DNA of 64,000 nt, from assembly GCF_001677475.2 (NCBI RefSeq), contig NZ_CP015229.1, one strand, 5' to 3'. Below the pieces are notes generated by a model. The model worked only from the letters and a program-made list of their open reading frames with translations, did no database searches and was not told the DNA's origin. The position numbers and the translations under genes are program-made. Below, one piece after another: positions 1-24,804 of the stretch. Every line of letters starts with the position of its first letter. Positions within the stretch are counted from its first letter, which is position 1. This DNA comes from Escherichia coli (GTDB lineage: Bacteria; Pseudomonadota; Gammaproteobacteria; Enterobacterales; Enterobacteriaceae).

Positions 1-1022
1 GGAGCCACTGGAGCTGGATGCGGGTTGTTCTGGGTGGTGAGAGCTTCTCTGCTCTGGCTGAAGGCCTGCAGGAAGCCCTCGGACAACTGGGCGGAGTGCC
101 GGTAGAACATAAAACGGACAGCCTGAGGGCAGCATGGAAACAACAGGGCGAAGATGGACGCCGCGAGCTGACTGAGCGTTATGCTACTCTCTGTCAGCAC
201 TACGGAATGCAGGGCGTACACAATAATGCCGGTCGGGGCCACGAAAATGGCTCGGTTGAAAGTGCCCACGGACATCTGAAAAGGCGTATCTGTCAGGCGC
301 TGATACTGCGGGGCAGTAACGACTTCAGCACCATAGAAGAATATCAGGCCTTCATCACTCAGCAGGTTATGCGGCACAACCGTAACAATCAGGATCTGGT
401 CAAGGAAGAACGTCTTCATCTGAAACCGCTGCCGCTTCGTCGCAGTGCTGACTATGATGAGCTGACTGTGAGGGTTAGTCGCAGCAGTACCATCAATGTG
501 AAGCACGTCGTCTACAGCGTACCTTCCCGGCTTGTAGGTCAACTGTTACGGGTCAGGTTATGGGACGATCGTCTGAGCTGTTACGTTGGCAGCAGCGAGG
601 TCATGAGCTGCCCTCGCGTCAGACCAGAAAAAGGGAAGACGCGGGCCCGTCGTATCGACTTCCGACATGTGATCGACAGTCTGGCAAAAAAGCCCGGTGC
701 GTTCTGCCATGCAACGCTGAGAAATGACATCCTGCCGGACGATGAATGGCGGAGGCTGTGGCGTCGCTTATGTAATCATCTGGAGCCCGATATGGCAGGA
801 AGGCTGATGGTACATGCCCTGAAACTGGCTGCAGGATACGACGATATCTCAGTCGTGGCAAAAGGTATGGAGCAGATGCTGAATACCCCGGGAAACGTGG
901 ATCTGCACCGGCTGATGCGCTTCCTGGGTATAAAAGAAAAGGCGTTGCCGGTAGTCAATGTGATACAGCATAACCTGAGCAGTTATGAGCAACTACTGCG
1001 TGGCAAGGGAGGTTCGCAGTGA
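1..1022 (+). CDS. istA: IS21-family transposase IstA (5' partial, open to the window edge)
   Basis: Frame is open from position 1; C-terminal transposase-like region; stop overlaps the istB start (GTGA), the classic IS21 arrangement. Confidence 0.8.
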   Translation, partial: SHWSWMRVVLGGESFSALAEGLQEALGQLGGVPVEHKTDSLRAAWKQQGEDGRRELTERYATLCQHYGMQGVHNNAGRGHENGSVESAHGHLKRRICQALILRGSNDFSTIEEYQAFITQQVMRHNRNNQDLVKEERLHLKPLPLRRSADYDELTVRVSRSSTINVKHVVYSVPSRLVGQLLRVRLWDDRLSCYVGSSEVMSCPRVRPEKGKTRARRIDFRHVIDSLAKKPGAFCHATLRNDILPDDEWRRLWRRLCNHLEPDMAGRLMVHALKLAAGYDDISVVAKGMEQMLNTPGNVDLHRLMRFLGIKEKALPVVNVIQHNLSSYEQLLRGKGGSQ

Positions 1023-1774
1023 GCAATATCCATCACCTTGAACATAGCCTGCGTAAACTACGCCTGACACGAGTTGGAGCTGAATGGCACGCTCTGGAAA
1101 AACGAGCGCTGGCAGAAGGCTGGACACCATCGCGCTATCTTCTGACGCTATGCAATGAAGAACTCCTGTGGCGCGAGAGTGAAAAACTGCGTCGTTATAA
1201 AAAGGAGGCCCGGTTGCCAGTTGCCAAAACGCTGAGCGAATACGACTTCAGTCAGGTGCCGGAACTGAATGGAGCTCAGTTCCGGCAACTCTGTGAAACG
1301 ACAGACTGGGTTGATGCAGGAGAAAACGTTCTGCTGTTCGGAGCCAGCGGGTTGGGGAAAAGCCATCTGGCGGCAGCGATCGTGGATGGCGTAGTAGGTC
1401 AGGGCTACCGGGCCCGGTTCTACAGCGCAGGAGAGCTGTTGCAGGAACTACGTAAAGCCAGAGCTCAGTTGAAACTGAATGAGCTGCTACTGAAACTGGA
1501 TCGCTACCGGGTGATAGTGGTGGATGATCTTGGCTATGTCAAACGCGATAGTGCCGAAACGGGTGTGCTGTTCGAGTTAATAGCGCATCGCTATGAACGT
1601 GGGAGCCTGGTGATAACCAGTAACCATCCGTTCAGCATGTGGGGCAGCATCTTCGTGGATGAGACTATGGCGGTGGCTGCGGCAGACAGGCTGATCCATC
1701 ACGGATATATGTTCGAACTGAAAGGGGAAAGCTACAGGAAAAAGACAGCGAAGGCAGTAACAAGCGCGACTTGA
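1019..1774 (+). CDS. istB: IS21-family helper ATPase IstB
   Basis: 251 aa with Walker A motif GASGLGKSHLAAAI and Walker B-like VIVVDDLGY; GTG start overlapping the istA stop. Confidence 0.85.
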   Translation: MSNIHHLEHSLRKLRLTRVGAEWHALEKRALAEGWTPSRYLLTLCNEELLWRESEKLRRYKKEARLPVAKTLSEYDFSQVPELNGAQFRQLCETTDWVDAGENVLLFGASGLGKSHLAAAIVDGVVGQGYRARFYSAGELLQELRKARAQLKLNELLLKLDRYRVIVVDDLGYVKRDSAETGVLFELIAHRYERGSLVITSNHPFSMWGSIFVDETMAVAAADRLIHHGYMFELKGESYRKKTAKAVTSAT

Positions 1775-1839
1775 TGTCGCCCTGAAGGGTGCGGCCAGTA
1801 TAGTTGGCGCGAGTCGGCAAAACTAGTTGACGTCTAATA

Positions 1840-2375
1840 GTCAAGGGATGATCGTGTGGAACAAGCAAACTATGGTGCCAACGAAACCACGGGAAGGCGA
1901 CGAGCTGCGGGTCATTACTCAAACGCTCGCTGGCGATACCAATATCAGCTTCACCATTTTGCAACAACGTCGCAATTTCCTGTGGCGTCCCCTGGATTAG
2001 CTCGAGCCGAACCTCCGGGAAAAGTTCGCGAAAAGCTTTAATGACCTCTGGCAAGCTATAACGTGCCTGAGTATGCGTCGTTGCAATAGTGAGAACGCCA
2101 GACGTATCGTTGGTAAACAGGTCTGCAAGCCGACGAACATTACTGGCTTCATTCAGAATACGTTCTGCAATGACCAGTAATGCTTTGCCCGGTTCAGTCA
2201 TGCCCAGCAGTCTCTTACCTCGTCGAACAAATATTTCGATGCCAAGTTCATCCTCCAGTTCCCGAATATGACGGCTGACGCCTGACTGTGAGGTAAAAAG
2301 CATATTCGCAACCTCTGTCAGGTTGTAATCCTGACGTGCAGCTTCGCGGATTATCTTTAGTTGTTGGAAATTCAC
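1840..2375 (-). pseudogene. cbl: cbl (LysR-type regulator of sulfonate utilisation) truncated by the IS insertion; first ~179 codons intact
   Basis: N-terminus MNFQQLKIIREAARQDYNLTEVANMLFTSQSGVSRHIRELEDELGIEIFVRRGKRLLGMTEPGK... matches Cbl as I recall it through ...LVPHDHPLT, then reads into IS-derived sequence. Confidence 0.8.
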
Positions 2376-2476
2376 GGTAAACTCCGGGCAGTTCAGATAT
2401 CCCGTTATTGTTAAAGTCTAATGCCCGGCATAACAAATAATAAAAACCCGCATCTTATTCCATCCCGATATAACGC

Positions 2477-3394
2477 TTAGCTCACCAATTGCCACTGCCT
2501 TTTTTCCATCACTGGAGAACTAATCACTGACATTAACAACTCTTTCACTGCTTGCGCCTGTGGTGATAAGTTCGCTCTGGCGGGTAAATTTAATGACAAA
2601 GAGAGACTCATGGAAGGTGTGGTAATGCGTGACATCCACCCGTTTACTGCGCCACATAACGAACGCGCGGCCGATTCGGGTAATACTGCAACGCCCATGC
2701 CGCTGGCAATCGCTGCGGTAAGCGTGGCAATAGACTCAATTTCACCAATGACTTTTGCCGTGAGCCGCCGTAGGGAAAAAGCCTCATCAACACGAAGTCT
2801 AATAGCACTGTAATCACTGGGGAGAAAGAGGTTCATTTGCGCAATAGCATTAACATCAACGCTTTGCCCCGGGCAATCTTGAGTTCCTACCAGGAAAAGA
2901 TCTTCTTTCAGCAAAGCCTGACTGGATACACCAGCCACAGGGGAATGCTCATAAATCACCGCCATATCGAGTTGATGATTTATCAGTTTTTCGTTAAGTA
3001 CTGCACCGCTATTTTCATGAAGATAGATAACGATCTCCGGGAATTCAGCGCGAACCGCCTGTAATAAGGGCATGGTGATGGATGACGCTGCGGTTCCTGG
3101 CGCAAAGCCAATCGAGACTTGCCCCGATAATGCCTGACCAACGTTATGCACCGCCAGTTGGGCCTGCTCACACTGACGTAAAATGGCCCGCGCATGGGTA
3201 TAGAGAATTTTTCCGGCGTCTGTTGGCGTAACGCCCCGTTTTGTGCGAATCAAAAGTTGTTGATTTAACTCACCTTCCAGTGTGGCAACCTGCTGACTGA
3301 GCGCTGGTTGTGCGATATGCAATACTTCAGCAGCCTGGGTCAGGCTACCAATATCTACAATTTTTACGAAGTATTTCAGGCGTCTGAAGTTCAT
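2477..3394 (-). CDS. nac: Nitrogen assimilation control protein Nac (LysR family)
   Basis: MNFRRLKYFVKIVDIGSLTQAAEVLHIAQPALSQQVATLEGELNQQLLIRTKRG...; tracker ORF starts 10 codons earlier, true start taken at MNFRR. Confidence 0.9.
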   Translation of the reverse strand: MNFRRLKYFVKIVDIGSLTQAAEVLHIAQPALSQQVATLEGELNQQLLIRTKRGVTPTDAGKILYTHARAILRQCEQAQLAVHNVGQALSGQVSIGFAPGTAASSITMPLLQAVRAEFPEIVIYLHENSGAVLNEKLINHQLDMAVIYEHSPVAGVSSQALLKEDLFLVGTQDCPGQSVDVNAIAQMNLFLPSDYSAIRLRVDEAFSLRRLTAKVIGEIESIATLTAAIASGMGVAVLPESAARSLCGAVNGWMSRITTPSMSLSLSLNLPARANLSPQAQAVKELLMSVISSPVMEKRQWQLVS

Positions 3395-3450
3395 GTTGCC
3401 TCCGGTGTTTAAGAATCGGCACAAGTGCCGCCATTACTTACAACCAGAGT

Positions 3451-3466
3451 GCAAGATGCTTGCCAG
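3451..3466 (-). promoter_or_regulatory. sigma-54 (-24/-12) promoter of nac
   Basis: Minus strand reads TGGCAAGCATCTTGCA (GG-N10-GC) about 56 bp upstream of the nac start. Confidence 0.6.
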
Positions 3467-3580
3467 TTTTATTTTGGCGTTGATGTACAAGCTAACCAGC
3501 TGTCAAATAAGAGATTATGATAGATTCGTCATTGGCTCCTTTAATCAGCTGTCGCGTTCCCCTGCCCTATAAAAGGAGGG

Positions 3581-3597
3581 TATGCACCACGATGGTT
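3581..3597. promoter_or_regulatory. Putative NtrC binding site upstream of nac
   Basis: TGCACCACGATGGTTCA resembles the NtrC consensus TGCACCA-N3-TGGTGCA. Confidence 0.45.
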
Positions 3598-3720
3598 CAT
3601 TACCCAATAAGATTGAAAGCTCACCACTTTGTTGAAATTGACAGCAAACAAACAAAAAAATGCATTTCACCCTTTGACATCACCATGCACTGCCATTAAT
3701 ATGCGCCCCGTTCACACGAT

Positions 3721-3796
3721 TCCTCTGTAGTTCAGTCGGTAGAACGGCGGACTGTTAATCCGTATGTCACTGGTTCGAGTCCAGTCAGAGGAGCCA
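3721..3796 (+). tRNA. asnV: tRNA-Asn (anticodon GUU)
   Basis: 76-nt sequence TCCTCTGTAGTTCAGTCGGTAGAACGGCGGACTGTTAATCCGTATGTCACTGGTTCGAGTCCAGTCAGAGGAGCCA with cloverleaf and CCA end. Confidence 0.97.
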
Positions 3797-3802
3797 AATT
3801 CA

Positions 3803-3830
3803 AAAAAGCCTGCTTTTAAGCAGGCTTTTT
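3803..3830 (+). terminator. Rho-independent terminator after tRNA-Asn
   Basis: Hairpin AAAGCCTGCTTTTAAGCAGGCTTTTT followed by a T-run. Confidence 0.8.
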
Positions 3831-3851
3831 GCTTTGTAATTACCAACGCTC

Positions 3852-4787
3852 TTAAAACATCTGTCTTGAACCAGAACTAATTTGCACAGGCATTCCCGAT
3901 CGTCGTTGCAACGCAGCATTTGCGCGATTTACATCAACTTCTTGCCCGTTGATAAACGCCCGCAAAGATGGGGTTACCGGCAATGGTACTTTTCGGTCAG
4001 ACTCATATTCTGCACGATTGCGCGACAGCGGCTCATGAACTTCCAGCCACTTTGAACCATCCGGTTCCGTTGTGTATTTCACTGGCTGATCAATAATTTG
4101 AACACGAGTACCTACAGGAACATTATCAAACAGATATTTGATATCGTCATTGCGCAGACGAATACAGCCCTGACTTACCCGGAGCCCAATACCAAAATTG
4201 GCATTGGTACCGTGGATGGCATACAACCTGCCAATATAAATCGCGTACAGCCCCATGGGATTATCGGGACCCGCAGGAACAAATGCGGGCAAACTCTCCC
4301 CTCGTTTCGCATATTCGCGCCGAGTGTTCGGCGTTGGCGTCCAGGTTGGAGCTTCTTGTTTACGTTCAACGGTAGTCACCCAGTTACGCGGGGTTTCTCG
4401 CCCAGCCTGGCCGATACCAATAGGAAAGACTTCCACAGTATTACTGTCTGGCGGGTAGTAATAAAGACGCATCTCAGCGACGTTAACCACAATCCCTTTA
4501 CGAACAGTGGCGGGCAAAATCAGTTGCTGCGGAATGGTGAGTTGTGAGCCAGACTTCGGTAAAAAAACATCAGCGCCCGGATTCGCTTCCAGCATATTAC
4601 TTAACCCTTGCCCGTATTGTGCGGCAAAAGTCTCCAGCGGCTGAGTATTGTGATTAGGAACAGTTACAGTAAGCGACTGCCCCACTAAACGGCTACCCTC
4701 TGGAGGTAATGGATAAGTTACCGCCAGGCTATTTTGGCTGGCAAAAAGCAGAGCAAATGAGCAAAGAATATTTACACGACGCATCAT
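3852..4787 (-). CDS. ldtA: L,D-transpeptidase LdtA (ErfK)
   Basis: 311 aa with signal peptide and YkuD-type L,D-transpeptidase domain, matching ErfK as I recall it. Confidence 0.9.
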
Positions 4788-4848
4788 GTCCCTTTCCTAA
4801 GTCGCGAATACTATCCGATAAGTATAGCTTTTATCAGAATTTTCGTTT

Positions 4849-5928
4849 TTAGCTGTTCAAATCAGAAGTCGTATTCCCCGGTAGAACAATATTACTGGCA
4901 GCAAGTTCGCCCATGTTGTTGTATATCGCACAAGCAGCTTCGATGATGGGCATCGCCAGAGCTGCACCACTCCCCTCACCTAAACGCATATCCATATTGA
5001 GATAAGGCTCCAGCCCCAAATGCGACAGCGCTATACGCGCGCCTTTTTCTGCCGACAAGTGAGAAGGAATGAGATACGGTTTGATTGCAGGAGACATCTG
5101 GTAGGCTGCGAGCGCAGCAGCATAAGAAAGAAATCCATCCAGCAACACAGGTAAACCGCAGGAAGCAGCGCCTAACATCACGCCAGCCATTCCGACCAAA
5201 TCAAATCCACCCACTTTTGCCAGGACATCAACGCCATCCTGAGGATTTGGTTTATTCAACGTAATCGCCCGGCGCACAACATCAATTTTATTAGCCAGTT
5301 TATCTGTCGGCAGGTTTGCGCCAATCCCAACCACTTCTTCAGGATCCCGGCCAGTGATTGTGCTGACTATTGCCGCTGCCGGTGTCGTGTTTGCCATCCC
5401 CAGTTCACCTACACCAAACAGCGTGACACCGTTTTTTGCCAGCTCCCGCGTATAACATATGACGTCCAAAAGCAACTTTTCAGCCTGACGGCGACTCATT
5501 GCCGGAGCTGAAGCAATATTGCCGCTACCTCGTGCGACACGCATGTTGATAAGCCCGGGGATAGGCTTAGCAGTATCAATACCAACATCAATTACGTGGA
5601 CGTTAGCGCCCGCTTGTGCTGCCAGCACACACACGCCGGTTGTTCCGCGGGTCATATTTTCAGCCTGAATGGCTGTCACTTCTTTTGGGGAAATAGCGAC
5701 CCCTTCCTCCCAGACGCCGTGATCGGCACACATAACCAGTACTGCTTTTTTGCCCACATGCGGTATGCCATTCAACCCCGGCATTCCCGCCAGTTGTATG
5801 GCAAGCGCCTCCAGCCTTCCCAGGCTACCAACAGGTTTGAGTAACCCGTCGATATGCCGTTGTGCACGCGACATAGCGGCAGGATCGATGGCAGGGATCG
5901 TATTCAGTAAATCGGCAAGTGTTTGCAT
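4849..5928 (-). CDS. cobT: Nicotinate-nucleotide--dimethylbenzimidazole phosphoribosyltransferase
   Basis: 359 aa CobT family ([40 protein letters not shown]...). Confidence 0.93.
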
Positions 5929-5939
5929 GTCACGTCTCT

Positions 5940-6683
5940 TTATAGCATTGCCAGCAGGAAGACCAGTTCACCTAGCTCTATGGCTGCTCCCAGCGTATCG
6001 CCGGTTTGCCCGCCCAGCGTACGTTTGAGAAGCTGACCGAGAATGAAAATCGCAGCCATCGTCAACACCATAGCAGCCACACCATGCATACCCGGCAATA
6101 ATACGGCAGCAAAAATAGCGGCTAAGCCGAGTGTGACGCAGGTTTGTCGCCCATCAATTTTGCCAATGAACACATTGCCAAGCCCTTCTTCCCGGGCATA
6201 ACGATGACGATACATCAATAATGTGGCAGTCCCGCGGCTGACCGCACATGCTGCCGCCAGCGATGCAAGGATCGGTTCGCCACGCAGAGCCAACTCGCTT
6301 AACACCAGAATCTTTGCCAGTACAACAAAAATCAAGGCCAGACCGCCGTGGGTGCCTAACCGGCTATCCCGCATGATTTCCAACATGCGTTCGCGACTAC
6401 GTGCAGAAAATACGCCATCACAGGTATCGGCGAGGCCGTCCAGGTGGAATCCCCCGGTCATCAGCGCCAGCACAAGTACGCTAAACAGTGCCGCCAGTGG
6501 TACGCCACACCATGCCTGCAGCACCATGAAGACCAGCCCGCTGATCGCGCCAAGCAATAATCCAATCAAAGGAAAAGTAATAATACCGCGAGAATAATGC
6601 TCGAAATCCAGTCCCTGGGACCAGCGACGCGGTACAGGCAGACGCGTAATAAAAGAGAGCATCGCCCAAAATAATTTACTCAT
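5940..6683 (-). CDS. cobS: Cobalamin (5'-phosphate) synthase
   Basis: Polytopic membrane protein; true start taken at [18 protein letters not shown] (tracker ORF is 12 codons longer). Confidence 0.9.
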
Positions 6684-7225
6684 TTGATTTTTACTCCAAT
6701 ACCCGAAACCACCAGCCATACTTCATTTGCCGCAGCGGCCAGCTGCTGATTTACCCGCCCGGCAATATCACGAAAATGTCGTGCCAGACGACTCTCCGGC
6801 ACAATCCCCATACCCACTTCGTTAGTCACTAATACAACCTTTGCGGGGCAACGTTGGCAGGCAGTAATCAACGACTGAATCTCAGCATTAATCGCCTGTT
6901 CCATCACCTGATAATCCCATTCATCAGGGTCTTTATCGCCGCCATAATCAAACAACAGATTAGTCACCATTGTGGTAACGCATTCCAGCAACACAGCCTC
7001 ATTCGGGTTAATGTCTGCATGAATTAATTCATCAAGATGTTGCCAGCGCTCCACTGTGCGCCAGTGCGCCGGGCGGCCTTGCCGATGATGTTCTATCCGT
7101 GCAGCCATCTCATCATCAAGGATTTGCGAGGTGGCGATATACAGAACCTGTGAAGAGTCCCCAATAAGCGCCTCTGCGTGGCGACTCTTCCCGCTCCGTG
7201 CGCCCCCCGTCACCAAAATCATCAT
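6680..7225 (-). CDS. cobU: Adenosylcobinamide kinase / adenosylcobinamide-phosphate guanylyltransferase
   Basis: 181 aa, P-loop [18 protein letters not shown]; overlaps the cobS start. Confidence 0.93.
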
Positions 7226-7358
7226 ACCGACTCCTGATTCATTTGTATGATGGTATTCATTGAACAGAACAATGGATCCCCCACCGTTGCTGACCGCAAA
7301 ACATTTACGCGATTAATACTGCGCGTAATATAATTAAAAATCCAGTATTCTCAATCCA

Positions 7359-7796
7359 TTACGAAAGAAGATGGCATTGCGGGATAGCCAGACTTCCTCG
7401 TGTTAACGTCCGACAAAATGCGTCATTGACAGCGGTTTCTCTGGCATGACAGATTTCATTCAGATAATGGATTAATGCTGCAGCCCCACCAGCCGGACCA
7501 GTCAGCAAACGGGCATTGTGTTCTGCAATCAAAATTACCGTCGTTCCCTCAGAATGAGCGAGCCATTCTGGTACAGATATCTCGCTTTCAGCTGCTATCA
7601 ATAGCAGCACTGAATAATCGCTATATGCATCTGATAACGATTGCACAGGCCCACCGTCAAAAGGCTGGAAATCTTGCTGCCAGTCCTCACCAACAAAACA
7701 GGTTATTGGCAATATTTCAGCCAGATGTTTCGCCAGGTCCACATCTCCAGATAAGAGGCAAAAAAGAGCTATCGATTCGGGTTTTATCGTTTTCAT
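7359..7796 (-). CDS. Hypothetical protein (145 aa from MKTIKPES; tracker ORF begins earlier at a GTG at 7865), function unassigned
   Basis: ORF between the cobalamin riboswitch and cobU on the same strand; GGAGGG Shine-Dalgarno 9 nt before the ATG; I cannot match it to a Cbi/Cob family. Confidence 0.45.
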   Translation of the reverse strand: MKTIKPESIALFCLLSGDVDLAKHLAEILPITCFVGEDWQQDFQPFDGGPVQSLSDAYSDYSVLLLIAAESEISVPEWLAHSEGTTVILIAEHNARLLTGPAGGAAALIHYLNEICHARETAVNDAFCRTLTRGSLAIPQCHLLS

Positions 7797-7899
7797 GCCC
7801 CTCGCCCTCCACTTAATTTCCTGTAATGGCGGTCTGGTTGATAAGCCATGAAACAAGATTGCCACACCTTAAGTGCAGCCCTGGTGCCTGTCGGCACTG

Positions 7900-8170
7900 C
7901 GATGAAAGAACTAAATGATGCCGCCATACCCTGATCCTTTCAGGGTGGTAGGGGTATAAAGACGCGCCTGTACTCTACCTGACGCTTCCGGGCAACCCAC
8001 TTCCCACCGAAGTTGTTGGTATTGACTGACTGGCTGGTCTTCTGGCTTAGCGTCATCCTCACCCGACCTTCCCAATCTCGCGATCAGTGGCATTTTCGGG
8101 TTTGTCAGCATTACAGCAGCGGGGGCTGCGAGGGATTTTCACCCTCTTCCCAGGCACAAATGTGCCACAC
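7900..8170 (-). promoter_or_regulatory. Cobalamin (adenosylcobalamin) riboswitch, cob-operon leader type
   Basis: Minus strand reads ...GCCTGGGAAGAGGGTGAAAATCCCTCGCAGCCCCCGCTGCTGTAATG...GCCACTG...GGGAAGG...AAGCCAGAAGACCAGCC (B12-box) = conserved cobalamin aptamer core. Confidence 0.85.
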
Positions 8171-8277
8171 CTGTCAGCGTATGTTATGAGCTGATTTCAC
8201 TTTTCCCATAACAGGTAAATAACGTTAATTATTCATTCCAGCGTTTATTTAAACCTTCCCTTTTTTTAGCATTTACT

Positions 8278-9192
8278 CTATACCGTTTCCATCGCCGCAT
8301 TTTCACTCACTTGCTGTCGATACACCTGCGGCGTAACCTGATAAGTCTGACGAAAAACTTTGCAAAAATAACTGGTTTGTGAAAAACCTAAATTACGCGC
8401 AATGCTGGCGATGCTCCAGTCGCTATGGCACAGTAACTCACGAGCGCTGGCCATCCGTTGTTGGTTTACCCACGCATTAAACCCGATTCCATGGTATTTC
8501 TTGAATAACTTACTGAAATAATAAGGGCTTAGATAAACATGCGAGGCGACATCTTCCAGACGCAAATCGTCTGATAAATGCGCATCAATATAGCGTAAAG
8601 CTTTTTTCATTTTATTGTCGTGGGGACCAGGCGCACGAGTCTGGCGCACCGAATCTGACTGAGATTTGTTCTCTTTAATAACCACAAAATTGAGTTGTTT
8701 TTTGAGGCAATTTTCTACAATCAACTTCAACAAATCAGCAGAGGCCATAACTCTTGAGTAATCCATCTCAGGGACTTTGCGAAATTCATTAAGTAATTCG
8801 GGATCTGCCTGCCAGCAATCATCGACATTCAGAATATCGACCAAATCGACATCATCATTACGCAGACGAACTTGCCCGCACAATACAAAACCGACTAAAT
8901 GCCCGGCGATTACCAGTGGAATAGAGAAATCGGTTAATCCGGCATGACAGCGATAAATACAAGGCTGATCGGATTTAGAGGCTTCCAGGCCCCCACAACG
9001 ATCGCTCATGCGACATCGAGTGCTTAGCTGAGGGTGTTGCCGCATCAACTGACAAAATGGAGTGAAGTTAAACAGCTCGGAAATTTCATCGCCGTGAATA
9101 TTGACCACGACAACCGCAAGGCTGGTCGCCTGCGCAAAATCCTGCGCGATTTTATTAATGAGTTCTGAATTAAGTGTCGCCGCAGAAATCAT
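8278..9192 (-). CDS. pocR: AraC-family regulator of the pdu/cob regulon
   Basis: 304 aa; C-terminal AraC-type HTH; matches Salmonella PocR as I recall it. Confidence 0.9.
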   Translation of the reverse strand: MISAATLNSELINKIAQDFAQATSLAVVVVNIHGDEISELFNFTPFCQLMRQHPQLSTRCRMSDRCGGLEASKSDQPCIYRCHAGLTDFSIPLVIAGHLVGFVLCGQVRLRNDDVDLVDILNVDDCWQADPELLNEFRKVPEMDYSRVMASADLLKLIVENCLKKQLNFVVIKENKSQSDSVRQTRAPGPHDNKMKKALRYIDAHLSDDLRLEDVASHVYLSPYYFSKLFKKYHGIGFNAWVNQQRMASARELLCHSDWSIASIARNLGFSQTSYFCKVFRQTYQVTPQVYRQQVSENAAMETV

Positions 9193-9394
9193 GATAAAAC
9201 CTCCCAGTTAATTTATTGTTATAGCAAAACAATTGTTTTACATTTAATCTTCACATCATCCTTGATGATTTACTGACGAGAAGCACAAAGGACAATAACA
9301 AAAGCCTCCGTGAAGCGGGAGACTTTTTAATAAGTTCGGAAAGCAGATCACAAACAGTAAAAAAATAAACGTTTATAACTGCCAGATTATTTCG

Positions 9395-10204
9395 TTATTC
9401 GCTGATTTCTTTAGGCGTTACACTATTGACAGGTAAATTCTTTGCAATGAGATAGCGATAAATCGCCGCACCAACACATGCGCCAATGATCGGTGCAATA
9501 ATGGGTACAATGAAATAAGGAATATTGCGTCCACCAGTCATCGCAATTTCCCCCCAACCCGCAAGCCAGGTGAAAAATTTAGGTCCAAAATCACGCGCTG
9601 GATTCATGGCAAAACCGGTTAATGGTCCGGTAGAAGCACCAATAACAGCAACCAGAATACCAATTAGTAAAGGCGCAAGCGGTCCTTTGGGTACGCCATT
9701 ACCGTCATCGGTCAACGCCATAATCAACCCCATTAACATGGACGTTATGACCACTTCGACCAACGCAGCTTGCCATACATTAATCGCCGCTGCCGGATAA
9801 GTACTGAAGATACTGGCGAGTTGTAAACTTTCTGCACTACCACGCACCATATTGTGAGCAGATTCAAAATCGGTAAACAAACTGCTGTATAGAGAATATG
9901 CCAGAACCGCACCACCAAAGGCACCCGCTAATTGCGCCACACAAAATGGCAGCACTTTACGGGCTGGGAAAGAGGCAAACAGCCACAGAGCAATGGTAAC
10001 TGCCGGGTTGAGATGAGCGCCGGAAATACCTGCCGTAAGGTAAACAGCAAGCGAAATCCCTAACCCCCAAATGATACAAATTTCCCACAGTCCCAGACTT
10101 GCCCCGGCAACTTTCAGGGCGCACAAACAACCAATGCCAAAAAAGAGGAACAGTCCGGTGCCTAAAAACTCGGCAACGCATTGCGCCTTGAGTGAATCAT
10201 TCAT
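9395..10204 (-). CDS. pduF: Propanediol diffusion facilitator (MIP/aquaglyceroporin family)
   Basis: MNDSLKAQCVAEFLGTGLFLFFG...; two NPA motifs (HLNPAVT, MNPARDF); start taken at MNDSL. Confidence 0.9.
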   Translation of the reverse strand: MNDSLKAQCVAEFLGTGLFLFFGIGCLCALKVAGASLGLWEICIIWGLGISLAVYLTAGISGAHLNPAVTIALWLFASFPARKVLPFCVAQLAGAFGGAVLAYSLYSSLFTDFESAHNMVRGSAESLQLASIFSTYPAAAINVWQAALVEVVITSMLMGLIMALTDDGNGVPKGPLAPLLIGILVAVIGASTGPLTGFAMNPARDFGPKFFTWLAGWGEIAMTGGRNIPYFIVPIIAPIIGACVGAAIYRYLIAKNLPVNSVTPKEISE

Positions 10205-10716
10205 AGTGACACCTTCTTTACGGAGTTTTTCTTTATCAGCCAACTATGCGCTGATTGTTGTGTATATCGAGCGCAACTATAAAAAATTGCTCTGCAGAAA
10301 ATATTGCCAACATGCATGACAGACTCGTGTAAAAATCGTTCTAACATAGCAAATTATTGTCATTGCCGAAGCATGCAACACAGCGTTAATCAGTGTTGAA
10401 AGTAATAATTACTGTCAAACTTTCACAATAAAAAATTGTCATCATGATATAATAAAATTTAAACAAATATCACAATTCCCTTCCGCCAACCAAACCCAAC
10501 GAAATTTTATCCGCGATTAACCCCCTCAACCAACGCAATTAATTCACATTGAAACATCCACAAAATAACCAAGAAATTAATAACATATAGTTTATAAAAG
10601 CAATTTTATAATATTTGCCCTCTATTAATTTTTCTCATTAGCCGATTAAGTCAGCCATTCTTTTTCCTCGCTTTTTTTTATAGTCATATCGTCAAAAAAA
10701 TCCAGGCGAGGTCTTT
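10205..10716. promoter_or_regulatory. Divergent pduF / pduA control region
   Basis: 512-bp AT-rich intergenic region between divergent pduF and pduA with direct repeats of CAACCAA-like motifs. Confidence 0.6.
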
Positions 10717-11001
10717 ATGCAACAAGAAGCGTTAGGAATGGTAGAAACCAAAGGCTTAACTGCCGCCATAGAGGCCGCAGACGCCATGGTGAAGTCGGCA
10801 AATGTTTTGCTGGTCGGCTACGAAAAAATAGGTTCCGGGCTGGTGACAGTCATCGTTCGTGGTGATGTCGGGGCGGTAAAAGCGGCAACAGACGCAGGTG
10901 CCGCAGCTGCGCGTAACGTCGGCGAAGTAAAAGCCGTACACGTTATTCCCCGCCCACATACCGATGTCGAAAAAATCTTACCAAAGGGAATTAACCCATG
11001 A
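10717..11001 (+). CDS. pduA: Microcompartment shell protein PduA (BMC-H)
   Basis: 94 aa [30 protein letters not shown]..., matching Salmonella PduA as I recall it. Confidence 0.97.
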
Positions 11002-11810
11002 GCAGCAATGAACTGGTCAAACAGATCATGGCGCAGGTCATCGCTCGCGTAGCGACGCCAGAGCATGAGGTTCTCCCGAAAACCACTCATCAAATACGAG
11101 AGACGGCTATGGCAGAAAAAAGCTGCACGTTAACAGAATTTGTTGGCACCGCTATTGGCGACACTGTAGGTCTGGTCATTGCGAACGTTGATAGCGCCCT
11201 GTTGGACGCGATGAAACTTGAAAAACGCTATCGTTCCATTGGCATTCTGGGTGCGCGTATTGGCGCAGGGCCACACATTATGGCCGCTGATGAAGCGGTA
11301 AAAGCCACCAACACTGAAGTTATTAGCATTGAACTTCCTCGGGATACTAAAGGCGGTGCCGGACATGGCTCATTGATCCTCTTAGGTGGCAACGATGTTT
11401 CCGACGTGAAACGCGGTATTGAAGTCGCCCTGAAAGAACTCGATCGGACCTTTGGCGATGTCTATGCCAACGAAGCCGGACATCTTGAGCTGCAATATAC
11501 CGCCCGCGCCAGCTATGCACTGGAAAAAGCGTTTGGAGCACCATTGGGACGGGCTTGCGGCGTTATTGTCGGCGCTCCGGCTGCGGTGGGTGTTCTGATG
11601 GCCGACACCGCGCTGAAGTCCGCCAATGTGGATGTCGTGGCATACAGCTCCCCCGCTCAAGGCACCAGCTACAGCAACGAAGTCATTCTGATTATCTCGG
11701 GTGACTCCGGCGCAGTCCGCCAGGCGGTCATCTCCGCACGCGAAATCGGTAAAACCGTGCTTTCGACTCTCGGCGATACACCGAAAAACGATCGCCCTTC
11801 CTACATCTGA
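10998..11810 (+). CDS. pduB: Microcompartment shell protein PduB (tandem BMC); internal PduB' start near 11109
   Basis: 270 aa [14 protein letters not shown]... with internal start [14 protein letters not shown]. Confidence 0.95.
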
Positions 11811-11828
11811 ATTCTCTGAGGCAGATTT

Positions 11829-13493
11829 ATGAGATCGAAAAGATTTGAAGCACTGGCAAAACGCCCGGTCAACCAGGACGGTTTCGTTAAAGAGTGGATT
11901 GAAGAAGGCTTCATTGCGATGGAAAGCCCGAACGATCCTAAACCGTCAATCAAAATTGTTAACGGCGTCGTTACCGAACTGGATGGAAAACCCGCCAGTC
12001 AGTTTGACCTGATCGACCACTTTATCGCCCGCTACGGCATCAATCTCGCGCGCGCAGAGGAAGTCATCGCGATGGATTCGGTAAAACTGGCCAATATGTT
12101 GTGCGATCCAAATGTCAAACGTAGCAATATCGTTCCCCTTACCACAGCAATGACGCCTGCAAAAATAGTCGAAGTAGTTTCGCAGATGAACGTGGTAGAG
12201 ATGATGATGGCGATGCAGAAAATGCGCGCCCGTCGAACACCATCACAACAGGCTCACGTCACCAACGTCAAAGATAACCCGGTACAAATTGCCGCCGACG
12301 CAGCTGAAGGCGCATGGCGCGGGTTTGATGAACAGGAAACCACCGTTGCCGTTGCTCGCTATGCCCCGTTCAACGCCATCGCCCTGCTGGTCGGCTCACA
12401 GGTGGGACGCCCGGGCGTCTTGACCCAGTGTTCACTGGAAGAAGCCACCGAACTGAAACTCGGTATGTTAGGCCACACCTGTTACGCCGAAACAATTTCT
12501 GTCTATGGTACAGAACCTGTTTTCACCGATGGCGATGACACCCCGTGGTCAAAAGGATTTCTCGCGTCATCCTATGCTTCTCGCGGCTTAAAAATGCGCT
12601 TTACTTCCGGCTCTGGCTCTGAAGTACAGATGGGTTACGCGGAAGGTAAATCAATGCTTTATCTCGAGGCTCGTTGCATTTACATCACCAAAGCCGCAGG
12701 CGTTCAGGGCCTGCAGAGTGGTTCGGTAAGCTGCATCGGTGTTCCATCAGCTGTGCCATCAGGCATCCGCGCGGTATTAGCGGAAAACTTAATTTGCTCA
12801 TCGCTGGACCTGGAATGCGCCTCCAGTAATGACCAGACCTTTACCCACTCGGATATGCGCCGTACAGCACGTTTCCTGATGCAGTTTCTGCCAGGTACCG
12901 ACTTTATCTCTTCCGGTTTTTCCGCTGTGCCGAACTACGACAACATGTTTGCTGGTTCAAACGAAGATGCTGAAGACTTCGATGATTACAACGTCATTCA
13001 GCGTGACCTGAAGGTTGATGGCGGGCTGCGACCAGTACGCGAAGAAGATGTTATCGCTATCCGCAATAAAGCCGCTCGCGCTTTACAGGCTGTCTTTGCC
13101 GGTATGGGACTACCGCCTATTACCGATGAAGAAGTCGAAGCGGCAACCTATGCCCACGGTTCGAAAGATATGCCTGAGCGCAATATTGTGGAAGACATTA
13201 AGTTCGCCCAGGAGATTATCAATAAAAACCGTAACAGCCTGGAAGTGGTGAAAGCCCTGGCGCAAGGCGGTTTTACCGATGTCGCCCAGGCCATGCTCAA
13301 CATGCAAAAAGCAAAACTGACCGGCGATTATCTCCATACCTCAGCCATCATCGTCGATGACGGACAAGTGCTCTCTGCGGTCAATGACATCAATGATTAC
13401 GCCGGACCGGCTACAGGTTACCGCCTGCAAGGGGAACGCTGGGAAGAGATCAAAAATATTCCCGGTGCACTTGATCCCAACGAAATTGACTAA
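11829..13493 (+). CDS. pduC: B12-dependent propanediol dehydratase, large subunit
   Basis: 554 aa MRSKRFEALAKRPVNQDGFVKEWIEEG... Confidence 0.97.
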   Translation: MRSKRFEALAKRPVNQDGFVKEWIEEGFIAMESPNDPKPSIKIVNGVVTELDGKPASQFDLIDHFIARYGINLARAEEVIAMDSVKLANMLCDPNVKRSNIVPLTTAMTPAKIVEVVSQMNVVEMMMAMQKMRARRTPSQQAHVTNVKDNPVQIAADAAEGAWRGFDEQETTVAVARYAPFNAIALLVGSQVGRPGVLTQCSLEEATELKLGMLGHTCYAETISVYGTEPVFTDGDDTPWSKGFLASSYASRGLKMRFTSGSGSEVQMGYAEGKSMLYLEARCIYITKAAGVQGLQSGSVSCIGVPSAVPSGIRAVLAENLICSSLDLECASSNDQTFTHSDMRRTARFLMQFLPGTDFISSGFSAVPNYDNMFAGSNEDAEDFDDYNVIQRDLKVDGGLRPVREEDVIAIRNKAARALQAVFAGMGLPPITDEEVEAATYAHGSKDMPERNIVEDIKFAQEIINKNRNSLEVVKALAQGGFTDVAQAMLNMQKAKLTGDYLHTSAIIVDDGQVLSAVNDINDYAGPATGYRLQGERWEEIKNIPGALDPNEID

Positions 13494-13502
13494 GGGTGAG
13501 AA

Positions 13503-14171
13503 ATGGAAATTAACGAAAAATTACTGCGTCAGATTATCGAAGACGTGCTGGCAGAAATGCAAACCAGCGACAAGTCCGTTTCATTTCGCGCACCTGTCTC
13601 TGCAACTGCCTTTTCCGCGCCAGATACCGGAAATTTTCTGACCGAAATTGGCGAAGCACAACAAGGCACTCAGCAAGATGAAGTCATTATTGCTGTAGGC
13701 CCGGCGTTCGGCCTGGCGCAAACCGTCAATATCATCGGTATTCCGCATAAAAACATCTTGTGCGAAGTGATTGCCGGTATCGAAGAAGAAGGCATTAAAG
13801 CCCGTGTGATTCGCTGCTTTAAATCGTCCGATGTCGCATTCGTAGCAGTCGAAGGCGATCGTCTTAGTGGTTCAGGTATTGCTATCGGTATTCAGTCGAA
13901 AGGTACAACGGTTATCCACCAGCAAGGTCTTCCTCCCTTGTCTAACCTGGAACTTTTCCCACAAGCGCCTTTGTTGACGCTGGATACTTATCGTCAGATT
14001 GGCAAAAACGCCGCGCGTTATGCGAAGCGTGAGTCTCCACAACCGGTGCCGACCCTCAACGATCAAATGGCGCGGCCGAAATACCAGGCCAAATCTGCCA
14101 TTTTGCATATTAAAGAGACGAAGTACGTGGTCACTGGCAAAAAACCGCAAGAACTGCGCGTGACGTTTTAA
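13503..14171 (+). CDS. pduD: Propanediol dehydratase, medium subunit
   Basis: 222 aa; position and similarity. Confidence 0.95.
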
Positions 14172-14185
14172 CAAAGGAAACCTTC

Positions 14186-14704
14186 ATGAATACCGATGCA
14201 ATTGAGTCGATGGTCAGGGACGTGTTGAATCGCATGAACAGTTTACAGGATGCAGCTCCTGTTTCTGCGGTCCCCAACGCGTCAATACAGAGCGCCAAAG
14301 TGACGGATTACCCGCTGGCAAATAAACATCCGGAATGGGTTAAAACAGCGACCAATAAAACGCTCGACGATTTCACCCTGGAAAATGTGCTAAGCGATAA
14401 CGTCACCGCCCAGGATATGCGCATTACCCCTGAAACATTGCGTATTCAGGCTGCGATTGCCAGAGATGCTGGTCGCGATCGTCTGGCGATGAATTTTGAA
14501 CGCGCCGCTGAGCTTACCTCAGTACCGGATGATCGCATCCTCGAAATCTACAATGCGTTACGCCCTTATCGTTCAACTAAGCAAGAACTTATTGCCATTG
14601 CTGACGATCTTGAACGGCGTTATCAGGCCCAAATTTGTGCTGCATTTGTCCGTGAAGCTGCGGAACTTTATGTCGAGCGCAAAAAACTGAAAGGCGACGA
14701 TTAA
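14186..14704 (+). CDS. pduE: Propanediol dehydratase, small subunit
   Basis: 172 aa; position and similarity. Confidence 0.95.
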   Translation: MNTDAIESMVRDVLNRMNSLQDAAPVSAVPNASIQSAKVTDYPLANKHPEWVKTATNKTLDDFTLENVLSDNVTAQDMRITPETLRIQAAIARDAGRDRLAMNFERAAELTSVPDDRILEIYNALRPYRSTKQELIAIADDLERRYQAQICAAFVREAAELYVERKKLKGDD

Positions 14705-14713
14705 GGACGAACT

Positions 14714-16546
14714 ATGCGATATGTAGCAGGCATTGATATCGGCAACTCATCAACAGAGGTTGCGCTGGCAACGCTCAGTGCAACTGGAGAGTTGTCGTTC
14801 GTGAGTAGCGCCCTGGCGGAAACCACAGGAATTAAAGGTACGTTGCGTAACGTCCATGGTATTCAGGAGGCGCTCGCACAGGCAACGAAAAAAGTCGGCA
14901 TCAATGTTAGCGATATTTCGCTTATTCGTATCAATGAAGCAACCCCGGTCATTGGTGATGTGGCGATGGAAACCATCACTGAAACTATCATCACCGAATC
15001 AACCATGATCGGTCACAACCCGAAAACTCCGGGCGGAGTGGGGCTGGGCGTAGGGCTCACCATCACTCCGCAAGAGTTATTAACACGCCCGGCGGACACA
15101 CCTTACATTCTGGTGGTGTCATCGGCATTTGATTTTGCCGATATCGCGAAGATGATAAACGCCTCCGTACGAGCCGGATATCAGCTGACTGGCGTTATTC
15201 TACAACGCGACGATGGTGTGCTGGTCAATAACCGCCTGGAAATTCCTTTACCTATTGTGGATGAAGTCCTCTACATCGATCGTATTCCGCTCGGCATGCT
15301 GGCTGCAATTGAAGTTGCCGTTCCCGGGAAAGTTATCGAAACCCTGTCTAACCCGTATGGGATTGCCACCGTTTTCGCCCTCAATGCTGAAGAGACTAAA
15401 AATATTGTTCCTGTCGCGCGGGCGCTAATCGGCAACCGTTCAGCAGTGGTAGTGAAAACGCCCTCTGGCGACGTTAAAGCCCGTTCGATACCCGCCGGAA
15501 ATATCGAACTGCTTTCTGCCGGGCGCACAACGCGGGTTGATGTAGCTGCTGGTGCCGATGCCATTATGAAAGCGGTCGGTGAGTGCCCAAAACTGGAAAA
15601 CGTGACAGGAGAACCAGGCACCAACATCGGCGGAATGCTGGAACATGTTCGCCAGACCATGGCGGAACTGACCAACAAACCCAGCAACGAAATTTTTATT
15701 CAGGATTTGCTGGCGATAGATACCTCTGTCCCCGTCAGCGTAACCGGCGGTCTGGCAGGTGAATTTTCACTGGAACAGGCTGTGGGTATTGCTTCTATGG
15801 TGAAATCCGACCGTCTGCAAATGGCGATGATCGCCAGTGAAATTAAGCAAAAACTGCATGTTGATGTTCAGGTCGGAGGCGCAGAAGCAGAAGCCGCCAT
15901 TCAGGGGGCCTTGACTACCCCAGGAACCACACGTCCACTGGCAATTCTGGACTTAGGTGCAGGCTCTACCGATGCCTCCATCATCAATCAGAAAGGGGAA
16001 ATCGTTGCCACTCACCTTGCGGGAGCGGGCGACATGGTAACGATGATTATCGCTCGTGAGCTGGGCTTAAATGATCGTTATCTGGCAGAAGAAATCAAAA
16101 AGTACCCGTTGGCAAAAGTAGAAAGCCTGTTCCACTTACGCCATGAAGATGGCAGCGTTCAGTTCTTCCCTACTCCCCTATCCCCTCATGTATTCGCCCG
16201 CGTTTGTGTGGTGAAACCTGACGAACTGGTGCCTATTCCCGGTGATTTGACGCTGGAAAAAGTACGCGCTGTTCGTCGCAGTGCGAAAGAACGTGTCTTC
16301 GTAACCAATGCCCTGCGCGCGCTACGTCAGGTAAGCCCTGCCGGAAATATTCGCGACATTCCGTTCGTCGTTCTGGTGGGTGGTTCTTCGCTGGATTTCG
16401 AAGTACCGCAATTGGTCACCGACGCGCTGGCACATTATCGACTGGTCGCCGGGCGGGGGAATATCCGTGGTAGCGAAGGTCCGCGCAACGCGGTAGCTAC
16501 TGGGCTACTCATCGCCTGGCACAAGGAGTCGATTCATGGAAAGTAA
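14714..16546 (+). CDS. pduG: Diol dehydratase reactivase, large subunit
   Basis: 610 aa MRYVAGIDIGNSSTEVALA... (actin-like ATPase fold). Confidence 0.95.
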   Translation: MRYVAGIDIGNSSTEVALATLSATGELSFVSSALAETTGIKGTLRNVHGIQEALAQATKKVGINVSDISLIRINEATPVIGDVAMETITETIITESTMIGHNPKTPGGVGLGVGLTITPQELLTRPADTPYILVVSSAFDFADIAKMINASVRAGYQLTGVILQRDDGVLVNNRLEIPLPIVDEVLYIDRIPLGMLAAIEVAVPGKVIETLSNPYGIATVFALNAEETKNIVPVARALIGNRSAVVVKTPSGDVKARSIPAGNIELLSAGRTTRVDVAAGADAIMKAVGECPKLENVTGEPGTNIGGMLEHVRQTMAELTNKPSNEIFIQDLLAIDTSVPVSVTGGLAGEFSLEQAVGIASMVKSDRLQMAMIASEIKQKLHVDVQVGGAEAEAAIQGALTTPGTTRPLAILDLGAGSTDASIINQKGEIVATHLAGAGDMVTMIIARELGLNDRYLAEEIKKYPLAKVESLFHLRHEDGSVQFFPTPLSPHVFARVCVVKPDELVPIPGDLTLEKVRAVRRSAKERVFVTNALRALRQVSPAGNIRDIPFVVLVGGSSLDFEVPQLVTDALAHYRLVAGRGNIRGSEGPRNAVATGLLIAWHKESIHGK

Positions 16547-16886
16547 AGAGCGTGCACCAGCCATCGTCGTCATGGAGATCGGTGACTGTATCACTACATG
16601 GGATGAAGTGCTTCTTGGCATTGAAGAGGAAGGTATTCCCTTTCGCATTCAACACATTCCGTCAGGTGAAGTTATCGATAGCGCCTGGCTGGCTGCTCGT
16701 CAATCTCCCCTGTTGGTTGGCATTGCCTGCGATCAGGAAAAACTGATTGTACATTACAAAAACTTACCGGCATCAGCGCCACTGTTTACGCTGATGTATC
16801 AACAAGATAACCATGCCCGGCGCAGCATCGGCACTAACGCTGCCCGCCTGGTAAAAGGGATTCCCTTCCGGGAACTCCACTCATAA
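16536..16886 (+). CDS. pduH: Diol dehydratase reactivase, small subunit
   Basis: 116 aa; overlaps the pduG stop by 11 nt. Confidence 0.9.
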
Positions 16887-16905
16887 TCCACAGGAGAAAC
16901 GCAGT

Positions 16906-17181
16906 ATGAACAACGCACTAGGACTGGTTGAAACAAAAGGGTTAGTTGGCGCAATTGAAGCTGCAGATGCCATGGTTAAATCCGCCAACGTGCAACTGGT
17001 TGGCTATGAAAAGATTGGTTCGGGTCTGATTACGGTGATGGTCCGCGGTGATGTTGGTGCAGTAAAGGCCGCCGTGGATGCGGGGAGCGCTGCGGCAAGC
17101 GCAGTTGGCGAAGTGAAATCCTGCCATGTCATCCCGCGCCCACACAGTGATGTTGAGGCTATTTTACCTAAATCGGCATAA
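16906..17181 (+). CDS. pduJ: Microcompartment shell protein PduJ (BMC-H)
   Basis: 91 aa [29 protein letters not shown]... Confidence 0.95.
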
Positions 17182-17204
17182 CCCCATTTGCTAAGGAGCA
17201 CAGC

Positions 17205-17627
17205 GTGAAGCAATCACTGGGATTACTTGAAGTCAGTGGTCTGGCTCTCGCCATCAGTTGCGCAGACGCTATGGCAAAAGCCGCGTCCATCACGCTGGTT
17301 GGCCTTGAGAAGACCAATGGCTCAGGCTGGACGCTCATCAAAATCACCGGTGACGTCGCCTCGGTTAATGCGGCGATCGCGACGGGAGCCAGTTTCGCCG
17401 GACAGCGAAATGGCCTTGTCGCACACAAAGTGATTGCCCGCCCGGGAGACGGCATTCTGCCCCACACAACTGAAGCATTGACCGTGACGGTTGAAACAAG
17501 CAAAACACCAGCAACAACCGTCACCTCAGAGATTATCAGTTGTAATTTGTGTCTTGACCCGGCATGTCAGCGGCAAAAAGGTGAGCCCCGCTCACTTTGC
17601 CTGTACGCCAATAAGCGAGGGGAGTAG
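17205..17627 (+). CDS. pduK: Microcompartment shell protein PduK (BMC-H with C-terminal Cys-rich tail)
   Basis: 140 aa; BMC domain plus CNLCLDPAC motif. Confidence 0.9.
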   Translation: MKQSLGLLEVSGLALAISCADAMAKAASITLVGLEKTNGSGWTLIKITGDVASVNAAIATGASFAGQRNGLVAHKVIARPGDGILPHTTEALTVTVETSKTPATTVTSEIISCNLCLDPACQRQKGEPRSLCLYANKRGE

Positions 17628-17629
17628 CA

Positions 17630-18262
17630 GTGGATAAACAAACCCTGCAGGAAACAGTGAGCCAGATTCTGGATGAGATGCGCGAGCGCCCTATCCCACT
17701 GGGCGTTTCCAGTCGCCATATTCATCTTTCAACAGCGGATTATTTGCGTCTTTTTCCTGAACAACCGATTAGCGAGAAAAAGCCGTTAATGCAACCTGGC
17801 CAATTCGCTGCTGAACAGGTTGTTACGCTGGAGGGACCAAAAGGCAAATTGCACAACGTTCGCTTGTTGGGGCCGCTACGCAATGCAAGCCAGGTGGAAA
17901 TTTCCCGGACGGACGCCAGAACGTTAGGGATCACCGCCCCGCTACGCATGTCAGGCGATCTCAGCGGCACTCCGGGGATTCGTTTGATAAGCCCATTTGC
18001 GGAACTGGAGATCACATCTGGCGTCATTGTCGCGCAACGGCATATTCATATGTCTCCGCTGGATGCCCTGATTTATGGCGTTACGCATGGCGATAAATTG
18101 GCGGTTGCCATTGAAGGTGATGAGCGAGGACTGATATTCGAAAACGTCGCTGTTCGCGTCTCTCCGGATATGCGTCTTGAAATGCATATTGATACCGATG
18201 AGGCCAACGCCGCAGGCGCTGATAGCCCTGACGTTTTTGCCACACTGGTGTCAGTGCCATGA
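17630..18262 (+). CDS. pduL: Phosphate propanoyltransferase
   Basis: 210 aa; PduL/EutD-like duplicated fold. Confidence 0.9.
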   Translation: MDKQTLQETVSQILDEMRERPIPLGVSSRHIHLSTADYLRLFPEQPISEKKPLMQPGQFAAEQVVTLEGPKGKLHNVRLLGPLRNASQVEISRTDARTLGITAPLRMSGDLSGTPGIRLISPFAELEITSGVIVAQRHIHMSPLDALIYGVTHGDKLAVAIEGDERGLIFENVAVRVSPDMRLEMHIDTDEANAAGADSPDVFATLVSVP

Positions 18263-18750
18263 ATAACATGCTGATGCAACGTATTGTTGACGAAGTGGTT
18301 TTTCGCCTTAAACAACGTGCGGGAAAAGCACTCGTGCTGACTGTTTTTCAACTGCGAGACGCCAGCGTTCAAGAGAGCGTTCATCAGTATGCGTCATTAC
18401 AAATCCGATATGTCGATCTGCCGTTGTTACGACAACTTGCGGAGAACAAAACGTCAGATCGAGCAGCAATTCAGATACACGAAGCGTTAGCCTGGGGATT
18501 GCACATTCAATTGTCGTTGCAGCGTCATTTCCTGAACGCCATTGAATTGAAGACTCTCGCCCGTCTACCGCTAAGCTGGTGCGACGAGCAAGGGCAACCG
18601 ATCTACCTTCATCGTGATCGACTTTTAAGTTATGCCGATATTGCACAGTTAAGCTCGGGAATACTGGTGTTACAGCGAAAATGTTGTGTGACCGCACTGG
18701 CTCGTGAAGCGGCAATTACCCGAAATATTCAGTTAATCAGGCAGGAGTAA
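18259..18750 (+). CDS. pduM: Microcompartment structural protein PduM
   Basis: 163 aa; position between pduL and pduN. Confidence 0.85.
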   Translation: MNNMLMQRIVDEVVFRLKQRAGKALVLTVFQLRDASVQESVHQYASLQIRYVDLPLLRQLAENKTSDRAAIQIHEALAWGLHIQLSLQRHFLNAIELKTLARLPLSWCDEQGQPIYLHRDRLLSYADIAQLSSGILVLQRKCCVTALAREAAITRNIQLIRQE

Positions 18751-18753
18751 CCT

Positions 18754-19029
18754 ATGCATCTGGCTCGAGTCACTGGCGCGGTAGTATCCACGCAAAAATC
18801 ACCTTCTCTGATCGGGAAAAAACTGCTGCTGGTTCGCCGGGTCAGTGCTGACGGCGAACTGCCTCTCACGCCATTAACCGGCGACGAAGTTGCCGTTGAT
18901 TCCGTCGGCGCAGGCGTTGGTGAGTTGGTACTCCTCAGCAGTGGTTCCAGTGCCAGACATGTGTTTTCAGGCCCTAACGAGGCCATCGACCTGGCAGTGG
19001 TCGGCATTGTCGATACGCTTTCGCGCTAA
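18754..19029 (+). CDS. pduN: Microcompartment vertex protein PduN (BMC-P)
   Basis: 91 aa [15 protein letters not shown]... EutN/CcmL family. Confidence 0.9.
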
Positions 19030-19040
19030 GGAGCTGAAAG

Positions 19041-21430: not shown

Positions 21431-21440
21431 AGAAACGGAA

Positions 21441-23893: not shown

Positions 23894-23895
23894 CC

Positions 23896-24450
23896 ATGTC
23901 GAAAGCGGTAGGTATTTTAGAACTTAGCAGTATCGCGAAAGGGATGGAAACCGGCGACGCCATGCTGAAAAGCGCCAACGTTGAGTTACTGGTCAGCAAA
24001 ACGCTATGCCCCGGAAAATTTCTGCTGATGCTCGGTGGCGATGTGGGCGCGGTGCAACAGGCCATCAATAGCGGATCTTCCCTTGCTGGTGAAATGCTGG
24101 TCGACAGTCTTGTCCTGCCGAATATTCATCCCAGCCTCCTTTCTGCAATCAGCGGACTTAACCATGTTGAACAGCACCGGGCTGTCGGCGTAGTCGAAAC
24201 CTGGAGTGTCGCCGCCTGCATTGACGCAGCCGATTGTGCTGTCAAAGCTGCGAATGTCATTCTCGTTCGCGTACATATGGCTTTTGGCATTGGTGGTAAA
24301 TGCTACATGGTGGTTGCTGGCGATATTTCAGATGTTAATAACGCGGTCTCTGTTGCCAGCGAGCGTGCGGGGGAAAAAGGTTTGTTGGTCTATCGGTCAG
24401 TGATTGCCCGTCCACATGAAGCCATGTGGCGTCAGATGGTGGAGGGATAA
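23896..24450 (+). CDS. pduT: Microcompartment shell protein PduT (tandem BMC)
   Basis: 184 aa [29 protein letters not shown]... Confidence 0.93.
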
Positions 24451-24800: not shown

Positions 24801-24804
24801 CGTT

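Follow-up and report, generated by a model that had tools for sequence, protein, structure and literature searches.

Organisation of the region

The window, i.e. the whole 64,000-nucleotide stretch of E. coli DNA that was analysed, begins inside an insertion element and passes from there into the chromosomal gene cbl, of which only the 5' part is present (Table 1). From position 1840 onwards, the window is colinear with the cbl-nac-tRNA-Asn-ldtA-cobTSU arrangement of E. coli; the place of cbl downstream of nac is conserved, and 5412 complete genomes share this position colinearly. Between 7000 and 55000 the window is ordinary syntenic chromosome, with cobUST, a B12 riboswitch, pocR-pduF, the pdu operon, sbcB, tsuBA, the his operon, gnd and the O-antigen genes.

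An earlier note on this DNA had described nac as an intact paralog next to cbl. The gene is full length, its product scoring 600.4 bits on the Nac profile NF008410 (cut-off 309) with coverage of positions 1-305 of 305. As to paralogy, the description has to be amended; Nac and Cbl are only distantly related members of the LysR family, with 23% identity, and the close paralog of Cbl is CysB (PMC4501297), not the nac product.

Two further observations concern the surroundings. From about 8000 to 25300, the window carries a complete pocR-pduF-pdu operon for a propanediol utilisation microcompartment, together with the B12 riboswitch and adjoining cobUST; at least 80% of window 7000-31000 is covered in only 636 of 5426 complete genomes. 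The yeeO gene (13481-15124 in the draft locus L008) is annotated in some assemblies in a 547-amino acid, CTG-initiated form that overlaps the tRNA-Asn gene downstream of cbl, while most use a 495-amino acid form starting at ATG; the longer product is probably an annotation artefact.

Table 1. Features at the left end of the window and in the adjoining chromosome.
Feature	Position	Strand	Basis or remark
ISEc10 (IS21 family), right-hand 1839 nt (element positions 572-2410)	1..1839	+	window start falls inside the element
istA, C-terminal 339 codons and stop, frame open	3..1022	+	N-terminal 160 codons lie left of the window
istB, AAA+ helper ATPase, 251 aa, intact	1019..1774	+	NF038214
Chimeric ORF, Cbl 1-179 plus 57 IS-encoded residues, 236 aa	1665..2375	-	ORF list
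ISEc10 right terminal inverted repeat, ending ...GACGTCTAATA at 1839	1791..1839	+	terminus identical in 6 copies
GTCAAG, right-hand copy of the 6-bp target-site duplication	1840..1845	.	junction comparison; single copy in the empty site
cbl 5' fragment, 536 of 951 nt, residues 1-179	1840..2375	-	colinear with intact cbl
nac, intact, 305 aa, upstream of cbl on the same strand	2477..3394	-	NF008410
tRNA-Asn (GTT), unaffected	3721..3796	+	ARAGORN; annotated in reference L001

The insertion element

The istA-istB element of the IS21 family that the earlier note placed at the left of the window is confirmed and can be named as ISEc10. In a megablast search of 5426 complete E. coli genomes, window 1-1839 is 98.2-99.9% identical to ISEc10 copies that sit in many unrelated places on chromosomes and plasmids. 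These matches, hundreds of copies annotated as 'IS21-like element ISEc10 family', end at 1839-1853, and a plasmid copy (L002) aligns with the window at 99.89% over 1841 nt without gaps. A 1.8-kb match at 99.9% identity is far beyond chance. The name ISEc10 rests on 98.4-99.9% identity over 1839 nt to copies named 'ISEc10 family' in RefSeq, that of CFT073 included.

The termini and the length of the element were defined on six complete copies. Five of these are 2410 bp long, and the sixth, with a frameshifted istB, is 2409 bp long; all six have the same termini, TATGAGACG...CGTCTAATA. The inverted repeats are imperfect, the right end in the window matching the left end of the complete copies, TATGAGACGACAAT..., at 36 of 49 aligned positions. 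Four of the six copies are flanked by a target duplication of 6 bp and one by a duplication of 7 bp; the remaining copy (L004) has none. In the IS21 family, target-site duplications are 4-8 bp long. The coupled istA-istB genes, the imperfect inverted repeats and the short target duplication are all traits of this family.

Both genes appear to be in good order. The GTG start codon of istB overlaps the TGA stop codon of istA (GTGA). IstB scores 266.7 bits on NF038214, the IS21 helper ATPase profile (cut-off 200), covering positions 1-231 of 232; it is one amino acid away from reference copies, and its exact sequence is widespread, occurring in 493 collection blocks. IstA is cut by the window edge and matches NF033546 partially, with 117 bits against a cut-off of 160; the full-length IstA of a copy that is 99.8% identical (L003) reaches 226.4 bits on the same cut-off. 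The visible part of IstA is free of internal stops and is 1-2 amino acids away from reference IstA. The inserted copy is apparently complete and active.

The ISEc10 of CFT073 and of many plasmids and chromosomes has the same istA/istB layout, GTGA overlap, right terminus and 6-bp duplication. The window copy differs from these in its insertion site alone, no complete genome having a copy in cbl. The same element has been seen to jump anew beside lpp in CFT073 under laboratory selection (PMC7482066), these new insertions cutting or abolishing the expression of a chromosomal gene. They come from laboratory selection and sit up- or downstream of their gene, whereas the insertion in cbl is natural and lies inside the coding sequence.

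All six ISEc10 target duplications at hand (L002, L003, L005-L007 and the window) start with a G: GTTGCA, GGTCACC, GTCTTC, GGCAAG, GCAATC and GTCAAG. This suggests a target preference of the element. Separately, a single assembly, GCA_047262175.1, supplies eight of the ten places listed as L042-L051, six of them chromosomal and two on a 215-kb contig. Its ISEc10 copies encode an IstB identical to that of the window and several break prophage genes, which looks like an expansion of the element in that genome.

Truncation of Cbl

The switch from ISEc10 to cbl lies at 1839/1840 and is sharp to 1-2 bases in a three-way alignment that sets the window against an intact cbl and against the end of an ISEc10 copy from another context. 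The earlier note had the minus-strand cbl frame running for about 179 codons into the right end of the element, and exactly 179 residues (of 316) are retained, identical to those of the intact Cbl of a near-isogenic strain. Its prediction of a truncated Cbl holds for the cut after codon 179, with one correction: past the junction, the reading frame remains open for 57 codons into the element, overlapping the 3' end of istB on the opposite strand. This chimeric frame has no record as a gene product. Elsewhere in the window there is neither a copy of the missing 415 nt of cbl nor a second ISEc10.

Pfam places the HTH_1 domain of Cbl at residues 3-63 and the LysR_substrate domain at 90-293, while the effector domain of PDB entry 2FYI spans residues 87-306. 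The intact allele of this lineage aligns with that E. coli K-12 protein without mismatch over residues 88-306; the allele in the window ends at residue 179. The HTH domain and the linker are retained; of the 204 residues matched by the effector-domain model, the first 90 are still present and the other 114 are gone. On the Cbl equivalog profile NF009324, the chimeric frame obtains 399.9 bits, over profile positions 1-202 of 316, and the intact near-isogenic Cbl 687.5 bits. As the former value is below the cut-off for full-length Cbl (491), the window contains a fragment of cbl, a pseudogene, rather than a functional member of the family.

A truncated product need not be inert, and Cbl(1-179) might still bind the Cbl/CysB sites and act as a constitutive or interfering regulator. 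The intact HTH domain (3-63) and linker, and the 57 further open codons, would allow for this, and Cbl reportedly activates without a ligand and from a single binding site (PMC11495319). Nevertheless, we consider such residual activity unlikely. With 114 of the 204 effector-model residues removed, the two-lobed fold of 2FYI cannot form, and the frame falls short of the equivalog cut-off as described above. An independent allele with a similar truncation point, Q199*, is annotated as a pseudogene. Since the cut at residue 179 precludes the two-lobed effector domain, the interrupted cbl is most likely a null allele.

Both junctions and the empty site

The left 571 nt of the element and its left junction lie outside the window; the link to them is made via a draft assembly, GCA_002516285.1, that is identical to the window where the two overlap. 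This assembly and GCA_016118575.1, which provides the empty site, were found by exact-protein lookup of the LdtA sequence of the window. The earlier note had proposed to look for the 3' part of cbl beyond the left end of the element, for a short target-site duplication, and for an intact cbl with which to compare the interrupted one; all three could be located.

The right junction is carried by contig NJSK01000009.1 of GCA_002516285.1, which matches window 1779-14787 at 100% identity and stops 61 nt into the element. Among public contigs, it is the only one that encodes the contig-end product made of Cbl(1-179) and residues from the element. The left junction was predicted beforehand as the left end of the element, GTCAAG and the 3' part of cbl, and the open reading frames that gene callers would report from it were derived. 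One of these predicted products, of 133 amino acids, retrieved contig NJSK01000105.1 of the same assembly, in which 60 nt of the ISEc10 left end are followed by GTCAAG, the remaining 415 nt of cbl, yeeO, yeeN and amn. Over 140 nt, this contig agrees with the predicted left junction at every position; compared with the empty site, it has one mismatch in 4421 nt. Other routes to the left flank were less productive: lookups of Amn and of the 547- and 495-amino acid forms of YeeO gave intact loci only, a predicted 139-amino acid leftover product matched only contigs in which cbl is split without an insertion element, and the matches of a predicted 101-amino acid product were mostly to the Q199* lineage and to error-rich assemblies.

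The left junction reads ...AAATTTGC-GTCAAG-TATGAGACG... (L072) and the right junction in the window ...CGTCTAATA-GTCAAG-GGATG..., giving a 6-bp GTCAAG on both sides of the element. In GCA_016118575.1 (L008), which has one mismatch to the window in 12,948 nt, the site is uninterrupted and codes for an intact Cbl of 316 amino acids. It reads ...TTTGCGTCAAGGGATG..., that is, ...AAATTTGC GTCAAG GGATGATC..., or, on the side of the right junction, ...TTTGC GTCAAG GGATG.... Read from these junctions, the event is a simple transposition with a 6-bp target duplication in which the 3' part of cbl has been retained.

A more complex history could be imagined, in which the 3' part of cbl was lost or relocated together with the genes beside it, either by a deletion adjacent to the element or by recombination of one ISEc10 copy with another. 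The left flank of the element lies beyond the edge of the window, and the two junction contigs of GCA_002516285.1 each end 60-61 nt into the element, so that no single contig spans it; furthermore, rearranged copies of ISEc10 do exist, as one of the six complete copies (L004) lacks a target duplication. We regard this as very improbable for the locus described here, because both junctions, the matching 6-bp duplication and the 3' fragment of cbl beside yeeO are found in an assembly that matches the window at 100% identity over 13 kb. The duplication is proof of a simple insertion as the original event.

Copies of insertion elements are repeated sequences and frequent sites of misassembly, and the join between ISEc10 and cbl might be chimeric. 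An assembly artefact is nonetheless extremely unlikely: the join falls exactly at the terminus that was defined on six other copies, and an independent public assembly has the same right junction, the complementary left junction and the expected duplication. Natural divergence of cbl at about 1839, which the earlier note had named as an outcome that would speak against its reading, is excluded by the three-way alignment and by the termini defined on other ISEc10 copies: up to 1839 the window is ISEc10 with 99.9% identity, and intact cbl continues with unrelated sequence.

Occurrence of the insertion and other cbl alleles

The junction between cbl and ISEc10 occurs in none of the 5426 complete E. 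coli genomes; among public draft assemblies, one, GCA_002516285.1, has it. Searches of GTDB representative genomes and of JGI metagenome contigs for the exact right junction gave no match, and a literature search gave no paper on the assembly accession or on natural disruption of cbl by an insertion element. The insertion is private to one lineage. As a separate observation, the window is at most about 98.3% identical, over 24 kb, to the best complete E. coli genome, and 99.99% identical to the draft GCA_016118575.1 (positions 1840-14787); by this comparison, its lineage is absent among the 5426 complete genomes.

Few complete genomes have a large disruption of cbl, the gene being contiguous in 5411 of the 5426. 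Loss of its function is not a rarity. A nonsense allele, Q199* (CAG to TAG at codon 199), is present in 109 of these genomes, including O26:H11 strain 11368 and O26/O103 STEC; at an example locus (L064, NZ_AP027176.1 2771156-2772706) it is annotated 'cbl pseudogene, internal stop'. In O157:H7, cbl is intact. In the O26:H11-type STEC with this allele (strain 11368, EH2252), the C-terminal third or more of Cbl is lost and nac is intact, as in the window. The two alleles differ in the number of residues kept, 198 against 179, and in their origin, a point mutation against a strain-private insertion.

In addition, contigs from Logan, ENA and NCBI (L026-L031, L071, L073, L076, L077) contain cbl split into products of 177+139, 179+133, 183+133 or 165+139 amino acids without an insertion element. 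These are small lesions clustered near codons 177-183, beside the ISEc10 insertion site; some may be sequencing errors. With Q199*, the small lesions around codons 177-183, seen in several read-level assemblies, and the ISEc10 insertion, there are at least three kinds of independent null allele, on the basis of which the inactivation of cbl might be recurrent in E. coli, and perhaps adaptive. We put this forward as a doubtful suggestion.

Proposed event and predicted consequences

Taken together, the comparisons make it very probable that a copy of ISEc10 has inserted itself by transposition into cbl on the chromosome of one E. coli lineage, creating what is likely a null allele. In the proposed course of events, ISEc10 (2410 bp, encoding the IstA transposase and the IstB AAA+ helper ATPase) would have entered cbl at codons 177-179, in the orientation opposite to that of cbl, and its integration would have duplicated the 6-bp target GTCAAG. 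The gene would thereby have been split into the 5' fragment at the right end of the element, in the window, and the 415-nt 3' fragment past its left end, just outside. The sole product possible from the cbl promoter would be Cbl(1-179) followed by 57 residues encoded by the element. A promoter scan of positions 1600-3600 detected no sigma-70-like promoter; outward transcription driven by the element is thus not supported by a site of this kind near the junction.

Cbl is an accessory LysR-type activator specific for the tau and ssu genes; it acts alongside CysB in the induction of tauABCD and ssuEADCB during sulfate starvation (PMC4501297; PMC11495319; PMC6892915). In the insertion strain, the Cbl-dependent activation of these two operons, which lie outside the window, is predicted to be lost, and with it the use of taurine and alkanesulfonates as sulfur sources. 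The functions of nac and the CysB-dependent assimilation of sulfate should be unaffected. The comparisons above establish which element it is, its two junctions, the duplication, the empty site and the point of truncation; loss of Cbl function and the sulfonate phenotype are the most likely outcome predicted from them.

With a known element, a known gene and a known mechanism, this is an ordinary, strain-private knockout. Its cbl should be annotated as a pseudogene, and the strain would be expected to be unable to induce its operons for taurine and alkanesulfonate utilisation. The locus is a clean natural case of ISEc10 at work, for which the two junctions as well as a near-isogenic empty site are available. 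It adds one independent case to a small set of natural cbl null alleles, and has little import beyond the annotation of the strain. If the recurrent inactivation of cbl suggested above were true, the regulon for scavenging sulfur from sulfonates could be dispensable, or costly, in some host niches.
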